From Eledone cirrhosa (lineage: Eukaryota), in contig OZ024758.1 of assembly GCA_964016885.1 (NCBI GenBank), positions 6,200,001-6,264,000 of the forward strand: a stretch of DNA of 64,000 nt, in the 5' to 3' direction. Under the pieces are notes generated by a model. It saw only the letters and a list, made by a program, of their open reading frames with translations, ran no database searches and was not told the DNA's origin. Within the stretch, counting starts at the first letter, position 1. Every line of letters begins with the position of its first letter. Made by a program: the position numbers and the translations under genes. Shown piece by piece: positions 24,858 through 63,856 of this stretch.

Positions 24858-25054
24858 AACGAAGGAAATGTGGTAAGGAACCAGGTGGACCATAACGCAC
24901 CAAAGTACTCAATACTTAGGGTAGTAGAGTGGGTAATAGGAACGAGTAAGACCCCGACGGCTGAGCTCAAGCCGTTTCGACTGCTAATTCTGGACGTCCA
25001 GAATTAGCCGTCGAAACGGCTTGAGCTCAGCCGTCGGGGTCCTACTCGTTCCTA
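24858..25054. mobile_element. (TA)n-embedded fold-back element, family P2 (118-bp palindrome 24937-25054)
   Basis: Near-perfect inverted repeat centred on gac|gtc at 24995/24996; both ends in (TA)n. Confidence 0.85.
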
Positions 25055-25413
25055 TATATATATATATATATATATGTGTGTGTGTGTGTGTGTGTGTGTG
25101 TGTGTGTGTGTGTGTATGTATATGATCAATAGCCAACTGAAACGTTGACGTCACTGTCAGTTTTCTACTCAGAAAATAATTCTTAGACACTACTTACAAC
25201 TATCTCGTGCTTACTCAGATAATGTTTGGCTGTTTTAAGCTGACCGATATTCTAATATAGACATTATATATATATATATATACTATATATATAATGTATA
25301 TATTATAAATATATATATGTTATATATATATGTATATACATACATATATATATATATATATATATATATATATATATATATATATATATATATATATATA
25401 TATATATATATAT

Positions 25414-25543
25414 AACGAAGGAAATGTGGTAAGGAACCAGGTGGACCATAACGCACCAAAGTACTCAATACTTGGGGTAGTAGAGTGGGTAATAGGAACC
25501 AGTAAGATCCCGACGGCTGAGCTCAAGCCGTTTCGACGGCTAA
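25414..25543 (-). mobile_element. Family P2 single arm in (TA)n
   Basis: Near-identical to 24858-24988. Confidence 0.85.
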
Positions 25544-26619
25544 TATATATATATATATATATATATATATATATATATTTATTAAAATAACAGATTAAAG
25601 TTTAAGCAAAGAATATATATATATGCAATTTTCAGGTTCAGACAACTTTGAGTATATATATATATATATATATATATATATATATATATATATATATATA
25701 TATATATATATATATATATATATGTACGTCAATACTTATCTTTTCCCATTTATCTGAGGGTTCTAAACCCCGTTATCAGGCTAAAATTCCTTTAGTGAAA
25801 AATACGGTGAAAGCTATTCTATTTTCTAATTTCAAACCTGCTCACTGTTTCAAAACATACTTACTTGATATATATATATATATATATATATATATATATA
25901 ACTAGATATATCCTACTTCACCTGGTTAAGACAGTTTATAAGGATATCTAAAAAGGAAACGTAAAAACTACAAGCAAATAAAAAACTCCAGTTCTGAAAG
26001 ATGGAATAAATACTAAGATACCAGAGTATTTTGGCTTGCTTATATTTCCTTTTTATGATGAAGGATTGAAGGATGTATTTATTCAGGCAGAAAGAAAATA
26101 ATGATTTATCGCAAAAAAAAAGGAGTAAACACACCTGTCAATTTCTTTAACTTTCAGTGTTAGACGTACAAAGATGAGGAATGACAATATCTGCAATACG
26201 TTCTCATTTTTCCTTATCTCCTTTTTCGATTTTCGACCATTTCTGTTTGTTTTTCATTATTTTATTTCTGCTTCCCTTATTATTTCTTATTTCAGATTCA
26301 TTTTTATTTTTTAGGTTTTATTTCTGGCTCTTTTACTTGCTGTTTACTTTCAAATATCCGATGCTACAATTTTTCGCCCACGATAAGCGACAAATATAAT
26401 ATATATGCTTAAAAATCATTCCCTTGTCATTGGATTAAAACATCAGATATTTGACAATTATTTACATTTCTGATTCTAGTCTTTTCAATCATTATATGTG
26501 TTTCATGTTATCGAGAAAATACTTCATAAATCCGATGTCTCAAGCCCAATTAAACATTGAAAATGATATAAATTTTGCAATTATATTAAATATTTGATAT
26601 AATTTACATAAATATAGAC

Positions 26620-27040
26620 TGAGAGACTATATTTATATCTATATTTTAACTGTTGGTCAATCAATGATAAACATTGATTGCCAGCTAAATTTATTATAGA
26701 AATATAAAATATACAGAAGAAAAAACCAACACTAACCAATCTGTGTGTTTTGTTATATATTTGACTTTTTTAAGCTGACTAATATTCTTAACACACATTC
26801 TAATATATATATATATATATATATATATATATATATATATATATATATATATATATATATATATATATATATATATATATATATATATATAGTATGAGAG
26901 ATTATATTTATACCTATATTTTAACTATTGGTTAATCAATGATAAACGTTGATTGCCAGCTAAATTTATTATAGAAATATAAAATATACTGAAACGAAAA
27001 CTAACCCTAACCAAACAGTGAGTGTGTTTTGTTATATATT
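26620..27040. repeat. ~145-bp direct duplication (26620-26762, 26895-27040) around a (TA)n tract
   Basis: tgagaga.tatatttata.ctatattttaact...gattgccagctaaatttattatagaaat present twice. Confidence 0.85.
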
Positions 27041-27245
27041 TCTGGCAATATCATAACAACATAACCCTCCCCAAATATAACAATGATTTACATAACTAAG
27101 AGTTTTAGAAAAGAATGAATGTTACACTGTCTCTTAATTTTCTTCTAAATTTGAAATTCTAGCTAATTGATTTTTAAATATAATGTGAAAGTACAATTAC
27201 ATTTCTGTGCTTCCCTCGCGGGGCTCGCACCTGCGGGCAGTCTAC

Positions 27246-27835
27246 TTATTGTTGTTATTGTTGATGTTGTTATTGTTGTTGTTGTTGTTTTTGTTGCTGT
27301 TGATGTTGTTGTTGTTGTTGTTATTGATGACGTTGCTGTTGATGTTGTTGATGTTGTTGATGTTGTTGTTGTTGCTGTTGCTGTTGCTGTTGTTGTTGTT
27401 GTTGATGATATTGCTGATATTGTTGTTGTCGATAATTTTGTTGTTGTTGTTGTTGTTGTTGTTGTCGTCGTCGCTGCTGCTGCTGCTGCTGCTGCTGTTG
27501 TTGTTGTTGTTGTTGGTATTGATGGACTTCAATCAGTTCCGACAACAAGTGGTTCCAGTTGAATTGATCAGCTGAATAGCTTTTTCGTGAAATCAACGTA
27601 CAAATAGCTGAGCATTCTACAAACATGTGTACCCTTAACATTGTTCTTAGTGAGATTCGGTGGGACACGGTATATGGCAAGGCTGGCCGTTTGGATTATA
27701 CGTAGAGCTGTATTGACTGGAGCAATGTCTAATAAAGGGTCTTGCTAAAGGACGCCACACACCGCTGGAAATTTAACTCAGCACCTTTCGATTGAATGTA
27801 CAACACCGTTACTACTAAGCCACGCGCCTTCACAC
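27246..27835 (-). mobile_element. tRNA-derived SINE with (CAA)n tail ((TTG)n on plus, 27246-27515)
   Basis: Head ...taagccacgcgccttcac at ~27835, core gactggagcaatg...gtcttgct. Confidence 0.75.
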
Positions 27836-28499
27836 CGTATAAAGACACAACTTAATGGGGAATGTTATTTAATAAAGGAAACCTTTTGAGGCAATCGGTT
27901 ATAAATGTTTCTACTATCGCATTTATATGATAATCGGACACTCCACGAGGAACGACTGTAGGTGAGGATAGGTGCCAAATAGAAACAAGTTTGATGGTAA
28001 TAACATGTATATCGTCCGTGCTGCTCGTTTATATTGTATTATGAGAGAGATTTTCACATTGATAGCTGTATGCAGTGTTGGTGAGATGACATTAAACTGG
28101 TAGAAGATAAACGAATGTAAATATTGTTATATTTTTGAAGGTCGTGTTGCGAGTATTGCCAATAAAAAGAGCCATACACACTCTAGGATTTTCCCTTTAT
28201 CTTTATTACTAGTTTTTCGTTACGTAAATGTAAAGAATATAAATATGACATCGTTTTATCAATGATAATCCTTACAGAGGCACATACAATAAATAATGGT
28301 GGAGTCAATAAAATAGATCGAGATGCTTTGCAAAAGACATTAAAACCCAAGTATAATTTGGGAGACAAAGGAGGCCTCAGATCATCTGATAACAACACAT
28401 TTAACATCTCTTACGCTTCACTCTGTAAGCTGGTCATACTGGTATCACGACACAAAAGCACCCTGTCTATCTTGTTACGGGTTTGTTCCGGTGTTATAA

Positions 28500-61762: not shown

Positions 61763-61834
61763 TTTATATAAATAGTATTCTCTTAACATTCTACATTCTA
61801 CAGTGTATGGAGATATGATGTACAACATTATTTT

Positions 61835-61918
61835 AATATCTAAAATAATATCTAAAATAATATCTAAAATAATATCTAAAATAATATCTAAAATAATATC
61901 TAAAATAATATCTAAAAT
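61835..61918. repeat. 13-bp tandem repeat (aatatctaaaat-type), ~6 copies
   Basis: Direct repeat. Confidence 0.9.
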
Positions 61919-62796
61919 ATATACATCTACGAAAAGTTATTTACTGTAATACAGTATTTCTGCAGAATAACTGTTTTCAATATATCCAGTGACTCATATA
62001 ATCGTTATCACTCTATTGCTTTGTAATTATTAGGTTTCTTCAGGTCTACATATACCTCAACATACGTAACTTCAATATTATTCTTAGTAAGACTAAATAT
62101 ACTTTTTAGCATATAATCTATTGATTTAGTTAGTTATTAAGCCGTGTATATGATTTAATACAATATAGTGAATATATCCCCCCCCCCCCTTTCGATAAAA
62201 CAACTTTTCCAATAAGAAATCAATCAAAATATGAGTAAAAACAAGATTTGATTTTATCCTTAAAAGAAAACAATTGTAAGTTACTGACAAAGCTAATGTA
62301 AACACCAAGAATGTGATTTCATACGAATAAAACAGTTCTAGATCTGGAAAAGTCCCCCCCCCCTCTCTCTCTCTCTCTCTCTCTCTCTCTCTCTCTCTAT
62401 CTCTATCTATCTCTTTTTTTTTCTCTCTCTCTCTCTCTCTCTCTCTCTCTCTCTCTATATATATATATATATATATATATATATATATATATATATATAT
62501 ATATATATATATGAGCGTCTGTATGTGTGTGTGTGTGTGTGTAACCACAATAATAAATGAAATATCTGCCGCATGGTATGGCATTATGTAACTAATATTT
62601 CTATTTAACTATTTAACTAACACGTTACCAGGTATGAGGATTGAATTATTTCTTAACGTAATTCTCATTGTGTACCATAAGAGAAGATAAGAGAAGACAC
62701 TGGTCCATTGTTGGTCTGGTGAGGTGACAGTCTTATCTTGTAACATCGTTCACATGGAATCGTGTTATCAGAATGACACACATGCAAACATCATAC

Positions 62797-63253
62797 ATTT
62801 CTTCTTCTTCTACTTCTTCTTCTTCTTCTCTACTACTATTACTACTACTACTACTACTACTAGTACTACTACTACTACTACTACTACTACTACTACTACT
62901 ACTACTACTACTACCACCACTGCAGTTGAGGTCAACATCAGTCGGACAAGAACAGAAAACGAGCTGAATTCTAAGCCAAGTTCCCTTCCCCCTGCTACTT
63001 CCACTACCACTACTACAAGTTCCCCCACCTCCCTGCTATTTCCACTACTACTACCACAAGCCCCTCCCCCTCCTTGATATTTCCACTACCACTACTACAA
63101 GCCCCTCCCCACCCTGCTATTTCCACTACAAGTTGCCCCCCCCCTCCCTGCTATTTCCACTACCACTACTACAAGTTCACCCCCTCCCTGCTACTTCCAC
63201 TACCACTACTACAAGTCTCCCCCCCCTTGCTATTTCCACTACCACTACTACAG
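62797..63253. repeat. (TTC)n(CTA)n microsatellite and ~37-40 bp minisatellite (ccactaccactactacaag...ccctgctattt)
   Basis: Direct repeats. Confidence 0.88.
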
Positions 63254-63440
63254 TTATAGTCAGAAGATAACAGGTCCCCAAACCGACCTCTATTTCAAAA
63301 TACCAAGGAGGAGAGACAGAGAGAAAGCGATAAACGAAAATGTGAAAACATTTATTTATATGTATGTAAACTATATTCTTTTATACCATATTCTTATTAA
63401 TAGACACCTTAACTCCATTATAAAGGTTTTTATAGACTTC

Positions 63441-63588
63441 TGTAGCATGAAGAAGCCGAACAATGTTGGGCTGAAACCGGTACGATATATTCCTTTTTTG
63501 TAAATAAACTTTTTGCTATTATTCTATAAGTTTATTCCGGATGATTTCTCCCGAATGAAAACGTTCTAGTCCTGTAGAAGCCATTTCT
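63441..63588 (+). mobile_element. Family P5 3' end with decayed hammerhead (63441-63487), ending in (TA)n
   Basis: c[a]TGAAGA-agcc...ggct-GAAA-ccgg-TA: stem II and palindromic stem III accggt intact, core and stem I damaged. Confidence 0.55.
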
Positions 63589-63682
63589 ATATTATATATA
63601 TATATATATATATATATATATATATATATATATATATATATATATATATATATATATATATATATATATATATATATATATA

Positions 63683-63856
63683 AAACCAGATGGACCATAA
63701 CGCACCAGAGAACTCAATACTTAGGGTAGTAGAGTGGGTAATAGGAGAAAGTATGACTCCGACGGCAGAGCTCAAGCCGTTTCGACGGCTATTTCTGGAC
63801 TAAATAGCCGTCGAAACGGCTTAAGCTCTGCCGTCGAGGTCATACTTTCTCCTATA
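63683..63856. mobile_element. Family P2 fold-back in (TA)n
   Basis: gacggcagagctcaagccgtttcgacggctattt(ctggact)aaatagccgtcgaaacggcttaagctctgccgtc. Confidence 0.85.

Follow-up and report, generated by a model that had tools for sequence, protein, structure and literature searches.

A (TA)n-associated repeat of Eledone cirrhosa with a recurrent fold-back point beside a hammerhead 3' half: a probable remnant of a Penelope-like element

Introduction

Why should a short repeat fold back on itself at the same base in copies that belong to diverged lineages? This question is raised by P2, a repeat family found in a stretch of 64,000 nucleotides of the Eledone cirrhosa genome (assembly GCA_964016885.1, contig OZ024758.1, positions 6,200,001 to 6,264,000 of the forward strand). 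This stretch, hereafter the window, is AT-rich and dense in microsatellites. We conclude that the P2 copies are very probably remnants of a Penelope-like element (PLE) and, by analogy with described PLE insertions, likely of its 3'-terminal part, the pseudo-long terminal repeat (pLTR). The complete scenario that we lean towards adds that complementary DNA (cDNA) would be primed from both target ends at two start sites on the RNA, and that the two products would be joined at the hairpin of hammerhead stem II. The degrees of confidence expressed here, for this scenario and for its rivals, are judgements.

Both the function of the hammerheads of PLEs and the origin of their inverted structures are presented as unresolved in section 15 of PMC8557442. 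Since its centre and both its outer ends are fixed, P2 makes the questions of inverted repeats, tails and hammerheads countable in a single assembly, through the relative length of the two arms, the bases found at the tip and the identity or not of this tip with loop II.

Copies and geometry of P2

The five copies listed in a first-pass annotation of the sequence (c1 to c5, 118-200 nt; Table 1) were all used as BLAST queries against the whole window (word size 7, E up to 1), and exactly these five loci were recovered. Three of the five (c1, c4 and c5) are palindromic as announced, i.e. they carry a head-to-head inverted copy, and a one-sided tail is present in all three. The sense strand was defined as the strand reading GAAAC, which is the minus strand for the long arms of c1, c2, c4 and c5 and the plus strand for c3.

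All copies had been said to abut (TA)n. This holds for 9 of the 10 ends, which are at most 12 nt away from a TA run of at least 13 nt, the background being 2.9% of window positions at this distance or less from a run of at least five TA units. The exception is the short-arm end of c4, which lies beside the (TAA)n tail of a SINE-like (short interspersed element) repeat, and the 5' end of c3 falls within an imperfect TA-rich repeat. Moreover, c3 and c4 (53138-53470; 109/138 identical) share one (TA)n tract, tail to tail, and such tracts gather insertions of several families.

The start of the long arm, which was also reported as common to the family, is the same base in four of the five long arms, c2 starting 8 nt further in. 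With two of the three short arms, this base begins six of the eight arms. The chance of the shared long-arm start is about 6e-4, assuming that just 20 positions were available and treating the copies as independent. At the palindrome centre, the spacers measure 0 nt in c1, 1 nt in c4 and 7 nt in c5, whose short arm is without its first 6 nt. An exact-match palindrome scan gives an 11-nt spacer for c4, because of two substitutions beside its centre.

The other end of the short arm is also recurrent. In c1 and c5 the short arm stops at the identical base (sense position 58-60), as had been claimed for the whole family, whereas the short arm of c4 stops at the aligned position but differs at 4 of its last 8 nt, so that its end is only approximately the same. 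The offset of about 80 nt between the two outer ends was confirmed in c1 and c4; the tail of c5 is about 60 nt, its long arm being 20 nt shorter.

We then compared the arms over the 50 columns shared by all eight. For all three short arms, the nearest arm is the long arm of the same locus (2, 3 and 3 differences vs. 3-15 to other loci). The locus-specific variants already pointed out in both arms are also real, with 1, 8 and 5 variants private to both arms of a single locus. Within palindromes the arms differ at 2, 7 and 3 positions. These differences, together with the recurrence of the centre in diverged copies, argue against a fold-back read artefact. Copies c1 to c3 are 96-97% alike (126/130, 132/138 and 126/130), while c4 and c5 form separate lineages (113/138 and 106/118 to c1, respectively; 94/118 to each other).

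A hammerhead 3' half beside the centre

Sense positions 17-40 comprise a C, GAAA, helix III (5-6 Watson-Crick pairs, with a 7-nt loop containing a 6-nt palindrome) and GUC. The resemblance to a hammerhead 3' half suggested by the annotation is thus borne out: C11.1, GAAA, a helix III closed by A15.1-U16.1 and an NUH triplet are all found, as in the 3' half of a type I hammerhead. The poor cleavage triplet that was also described has to be abandoned, since GUC is present in 8/8 arms on the strand reading GAAAC. Helix III has at least five Watson-Crick pairs in 7/8 arms, c3 having one G-U pair. By criteria picked, like the core positions, after viewing the sequence, only 35 of 20,000 dinucleotide shuffles of the c1 arm give CGAAA with a helix III of at least 5 bp and NUH on either strand, and 9 of 20,000 when GUC is required.

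Between lineages, 0 of 15 core positions vary, against 29 of 138 positions overall (P = 0.023; P = 0.010 within positions 1-60). This invariance across three lineages suggests that the ribozyme remained functional in the parents, which would hence have had the missing half. The GUC site is 98 nt from the tail end and the common start precedes GAAA by 17 nt. If the parental motif was a hammerhead with a stem II of 11-15 bp, the common start would correspond to the position of loop II. The inserted copies themselves are predicted not to self-cleave, because the CUGANGA half has been dropped from the product. A type II hammerhead was ruled out, as no CUGANGA is found 3' of the triplet within the copies. 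The global fold of the long arms is not better than that of shuffles (z from -0.76 to 0.87).

Comparison with known elements

The first-pass annotation did not consider a PLE. Described PLE insertions have an inverted 5'-truncated copy adjoining the 5' end and a tail of 30-40 bp at one end; they are biased towards (TA)n, and their hammerheads are located in the pLTRs (PMC8557442). Endonuclease-positive (EN+) PLEs (Penelope/Poseidon, Neptune and Hydra) share with P2 the head-to-head inverted 5'-truncated copy and the one-end extension, the preference for (TA)n (in Hydra and Naiad, with Neptune being biased towards microsatellites) and a hammerhead located some 100 nt before the 3' end (PMC8557442, PMC4209133). 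The match of P2 with PLEs consists of these four features together: the (TA)n target, the head-to-head truncated copy, the one-sided tail and the position of the hammerhead. Unlike EN+ PLEs, P2 has no open reading frame (ORF) in its copies, a fixed rather than variable 5' truncation, and half a ribozyme only. P2 behaves like a truncated, inverted PLE insertion; since there is no ORF to assess, the tail is double that of published elements and the hammerheads are incomplete, copies of this kind do not allow placement in a named clade.

In octopuses, Naiads and Hydra-1_Obim are listed as (TA)n-targeted, and the hammerhead of Hydra-1_Obim is at position 2403 of 2507 (PMC8557442). These elements resemble P2 by their host group and (TA)n preference, and Naiad_Ovul is labelled 'HHR_half_core' in the same source. 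This label, however, designates a CUGANGA half with a distant second half (PMC8557442), while P2 has a lone 3' half. In addition, cephalopod Naiads are described as long inactive (PMC8557442), in contrast with the 96-97% likeness of c1 to c3. Four short P2 motifs had no exact match in the text of the PMC8557442 supplement, a weak test given line breaks and divergence.

The Penelope pLTRs of Adineta vaga have palindromes of 18 and 38 bp at their 5' ends (Pen2 and Pen3a; PMC3846280), to be compared with about 34 bp in P2, and they also occur with inverted junctions and as solo pLTRs (PMC3846280). They differ from P2 by a 31-bp tail and, in the account given there, by a palindrome that is not tied to the hammerhead stem (PMC3846280). 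Copies with target duplications of 8-10 bp are reported in A. vaga (PMC3846280), which in P2 would be unreadable inside (TA)n.

Two other systems show partial likeness. Non-LTR retrozymes are small, non-coding and carry a type I hammerhead, but their ribozymes are complete and they are organised as head-to-tail tandems of about 300 bp (PMC7229834), whereas P2 is dispersed, head-to-head and half-ribozyme. With neither head-to-tail tandem monomers nor a complete hammerhead in P2, a non-LTR retrozyme was ruled out. Head-to-tail P2 copies (partial tandems or direct pLTRs) were not found in the window by BLAST; they are expected only beside longer copies. In the 5' inversions that LINE-1 makes by twin priming, cDNA is primed at both target ends and joined centrally, as may be the case here, but in LINE-1 the inverted segment is the neighbouring upstream one, with priming close to where the first cDNA ends (PMC11702581), while P2 duplicates the same segment.

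Origin of the inverted arms

In the dual-priming scenario, a GIY-YIG/reverse transcriptase (RT) protein encoded elsewhere would cut both strands of (TA)n, as PLE biology suggests. Each target end would prime a cDNA on the uncleaved RNA. Two preferred U-A words, separated by about 80 nt, would serve as alternative priming sites, so that one outer end would have a tail and the other none. The cDNA would become self-complementary through a long stem II rich in G+C, and it could then fold back or anneal to its twin. Any cDNA stop within stem II would yield the same centre, and trimming of the tip would produce the spacers of 0, 1 or 7 nt. The single-arm copies c2 and c3 may derive from one cDNA or from the loss of an arm.

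Several of these steps have a parallel in PAc (Poseidon, Anolis), for which both strands are cleaved and extended at an AT-rich target, two RT start sites bound the tail, and the main template is the uncleaved RNA (PMC11167929). The fixed short-arm end of P2 matches this two-start-site tail signature. PAc differs from P2 by its complete ribozyme, its ORF and its shorter tail, and the formation of inverted copies falls outside the scope that this study describes (PMC11167929).

A sister family in the window, H, bears directly on the question. Its two copies have (TA)n on both sides, inverted arms and the same short-arm end in both, with a tail that reaches 85 nt, so that longer tails appear usual in this window; the centres of the two copies differ. 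Upstream of the anchor, copy 1 and copy 2 match over 11 nt in the tail-less arm of copy 1 and over 4 nt in its tailed arm, i.e. 7 nt further in the former. A tailed cDNA that snaps back could not supply these extra 7 nt, and two primed strands are therefore needed for copy 1. The spacer of copy 2 contains an 80%-identical repeat oriented like the tail-less arm, which also points to two primed strands, although it could be an older neighbouring copy. The arms of copy 2 are 100% identical, meaning either that the insertion is very young or that the assembly has had an effect. The helix II of family H, as folded by RNAfold, consists of a 12-bp outer stem and 3 inner pairs and is A+U-rich with wobbles. 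Its cDNA hairpin is weak, at -1.9 kcal/mol, whereas the three P2 centres reach -10.0 to -11.2, values that are computed on the mirrored product and thus partly circular. Tailed palindromes at (TA)n are thus commonplace in this genome, and P2 stands out by its fixed centre.

The annotation had proposed that cDNA snap-back at a hairpin generates the second arm. An RNA-templated origin, a common template for both arms and a centre set by a hairpin are supported or plausible. Snap-back alone does not suffice, because it offers no intrinsic reason for a fixed outer end of the short arm and because it fails for family H copy 1. In its most complete form, a PLE remnant is again assumed, a single tailed cDNA snapping back at the hairpin and copying itself before the opposite (TA)n end captures it by microhomology at the first TAT. 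We consider this unlikely, although three observations speak for it. TAT words occur at sense positions 58, 82 and 102 and the short-arm end coincides with the first; the 7-nt loop of c5 belongs to the tailed arm, as predicted; and self-priming is the published reading of the palindromes at inverted Penelope junctions, there on an antisense template (PMC3846280). On the other side, the tail-less arm of family H copy 1, longer by 7 nt, runs past two ATAT words before reaching its fixed end, and the PLE enzyme, when purified, uses two start sites and extends both strands (PMC11167929). Moreover, spacers of 0 and 1 nt require either that the palindrome was already present in the template, which snap-back would need, or an end-to-end join.

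Such a join is the basis of a second alternative, to which we give slightly less credit. The template would be a short non-autonomous RNA whose 5' end is fixed at the common start, and two run-off cDNAs would be joined end to end with 0-1 untemplated bases, so that a natural stem II would not be required. The start base common to 6/8 arms, including that of the single-arm c3, and the 0- and 1-nt spacers agree with it. However, a 5' end inside loop II would leave the conservation of the catalytic half pointless, and a tRNA-like head was not found (ARAGORN, 0 genes; Rfam). By the same evidence, with no tRNA match on c3 in Rfam, a tRNA-derived SINE was ruled out.

Nor do we find it probable, and here our confidence is lower still, that an ancestral palindromic insertion became mobile, its centre and short-arm end being inherited, its arms gene-converted, and single arms arising by cruciform deletion. 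This single account would cover both fixed points. Unstable palindromes give tip-centred indels, as in c4 and c5, and arm loss, as in c2 and c3. Nevertheless, no derived variant is common to the short arms of different loci, the single column in which two short arms agree against both long arms showing the common base of the family. The arms of a locus differ at 2-3 of 50 columns, against 7-15 between the three palindromic loci, so that conversion would have to be frequent, and the catalytic half would not stay conserved inside a perfect hairpin.

Finally, a DNA element with an intrinsic palindrome (terminal inverted repeat (TIR) element or miniature inverted-repeat transposable element, Helitron, or foldback) and a hammerhead resemblance due to chance is very improbable: TA targets and palindromes are common among DNA elements and Rfam gives the ribozyme no support, but the outer ends are not terminal inverted repeats, the tail of 60-80 nt being unmirrored and two of the five copies single-armed, a hammerhead half is rare by chance, and like-built sister families carry complete cores.

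Weight of the evidence for a PLE remnant with dual priming

A number of results weigh against a PLE remnant formed by dual priming and joined at stem II. The palindromes are few (three) and c1 to c3 are closely related. Longer P2 copies, which might have served as a parent and in which the annotation advised looking for an upstream CUGANGA, were not found by BLAST in the window, where this check was run. As the annotation had stated, the CUGANGA half is absent: there is none within 300 nt upstream of any of the five copies, and no trans-acting partner exists among the 147 NTGANGA words in the window, the best pairing having 2 bp on its weaker side. For the parent, a 5' strand of stem II is predicted by the model. 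The post hoc choice of the shuffle criteria and the circularity of the hairpin energies count on the same side. In addition, the minimum-energy fold holds helix III in just two of the five long arms, a hairpin over GAAA competing with it in the other three. Rfam gives no hammerhead match on c3 and none, over the whole window, among the best 150 of 227 matches (E up to 5), those 150 being below gathering scores; this silence weighs little, since Rfam also misses the complete core of family H.

The tail of about 80 nt exceeds the 30-40 of metazoan PLEs. In the hammerheads of metazoan PLEs, helix II is long (7-8 bp), the G10.1-C11.1 pair is conserved and helix III is short and palindromic, a large helix III being found in the PLEs of fungi and protists (PMC4209133); with 5-6 bp and a 7-nt loop, helix III of P2 departs from the metazoan type. 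The end of the short arm, as it coincides with the first TAT word of the sense strand, could have been set by microhomology capture without a second priming site. We also tested the 69 open frames of the window (each of at least 75 codons, outside tandem repeats). None encodes an RT or a GIY-YIG domain, and 68 of 69 have no match in Pfam, the remaining one being weak and unrelated.

Inverted architecture and self-priming at palindromes are already in print. For a base-exact centre coinciding with the loop II of a hammerhead, no precedent was found in the open-licence literature searched. This literature likewise gave no match for Penelope snap-back hairpins, Neptune microsatellite palindromes or cephalopod non-autonomous Penelope palindromes, and the best-ranked titles and abstract openings on hammerheads with fold-back or twin priming held nothing on this case. 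It is tempting, but for us doubtful, to go further and regard the stem II hairpin of the PLE hammerhead as a programmed stop-and-join signal for cDNA, which in three diverged lineages would convert an otherwise random 5' truncation into a head-to-head junction exact to a single base, with amputation of the catalytic half. If true, the ribozyme fold of PLEs would gain a role in integration separate from cleavage, and the P2 copies across the genome would naturally record the way in which a PLE insertion resolves its two primed ends. If the link with stem II fails, P2 is an ordinary uncatalogued remnant of an octopod PLE.

Sister families and coding readings

Besides H, two other families of the window combine palindromes with hammerhead cores or hammerhead-like motifs (Table 1). 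Family K has a palindrome at 48562-48634, with 36-bp arms and a 1-nt spacer, and shares (TA)n tracts with P2 c1 and with family H. Family G shares a (TA)n tract with P2 c5; a variant core lies near 63446 and a core that by eye resembles the Hydra-type table near 40719. A loose hammerhead descriptor also gave single-copy matches at 29635-29717 (-), 46724-46795 (-) and 36014-36094 (+), which may be due to chance.

Table 1. Positions of the P2 copies, their parts and the sister families in the window
Feature	Position	Strand	Remarks
c1 (palindromic)	24858-25055
c1 long (tailed) arm	24858..24995	-	138 nt
c1 short (tail-less) arm	24996..25055	+	0-nt spacer at 24995/24996; 2 differences vs. long arm over 58 columns
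c1 one-sided tail	24858..24935	-	about 80 nt, unmirrored
c1 long-arm hammerhead 3' half	24956..24979	-	C11.1, GAAA, 6-bp helix III, 7-nt loop, GUC; mirror at 25012-25035 (+)
c2 single arm	25414..25543	-	130 nt; starts 8 nt inside common start; (TA)n both sides
c3 single arm	53138..53275	+	138 nt; begins at common start; one G-U pair in helix III
c4 (palindromic)	53330-53532
c4 long arm	53330..53470	-	141 nt; divergent lineage, 113/138 identical to c1
c4 short arm	53472..53532	+	1-nt spacer at 53471; outer end adjoins (TAA)n of SINE-like repeat
c5 (palindromic)	63683-63855
c5 long arm	63683..63800	-	118 nt; tail end 20 nt short
c5 short arm	63802..63855	+	begins at sense position 7; 7-nt unpaired centre 63795-63801
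Family H copy 1	43361..43767	+	palindrome, 6-nt spacer, 85-nt one-sided tail, (TA)n both sides
Family H copy 1, complete hammerhead core	43582-43636		long helix II
Family H copy 2	48661..50071	.	419-nt arms, 100% identical; short-arm end and tail as in copy 1; different centre
Family K	24640-24836; 48500-48634; 27043-27084		minimal hammerhead core near 24645
Family G	63260-63590; 40645-40777; 62314-62352		hammerhead-like motifs, palindrome with 15-nt spacer

The coding potential of P2 was also considered. Four copies (c1, c2, c3 and c5) share a sense frame that is open throughout, and c1 to c3 also share an open antisense frame. A coding reading is disfavoured, as the changes between lineages are mostly non-synonymous and c4 shifts the frame. 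Used as a protein query, the c3 sense frame had 0 hits among 7 candidates. The antisense frame gave 6 weak hits (E from 2.5e-6 to 6.5e-4; 37-47% identity where given) to partial repeated stretches, which we read as noise. The comparison of c3 with plasmids and phages gave no match.

Other features of the window

A single clear gene was identified in the window, a single-exon frame of 331 codons at 37558-38550 (-), without a Pfam match. Its homologues are octopod and other mollusc proteins, some of them named nucleotide-diphospho-sugar transferase. Its best named relatives are from Argonauta and Octopus (68%, 60% and 47-51% identity), which points to an octopod cephalopod as the host.

Other repeats were also noted. 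A SINE-like family of 190 bp (80-94% identity) is present at 6817-7004, 24163-24350, 34628-34806, 53573-53728 and about 20 other places, and in its copy at 48100-48222 a stretch of 61 bp is duplicated in inverted orientation, with a 1-nt spacer. A second SINE-like family (8641-9061, 16061-16316 and 47127-47307) has an Rfam tRNA match of 28.5 bits at 8985-9042, the cut-off being 29. Two perfect 38-bp palindromes with 0 spacer, at 40874-40911 and 43906-43943, have no adjoining (TA)n. Finally, a minisatellite extends over 58910-60316, with a 75-bp unit (3 x 25) in 18.8 copies and 97% matches.

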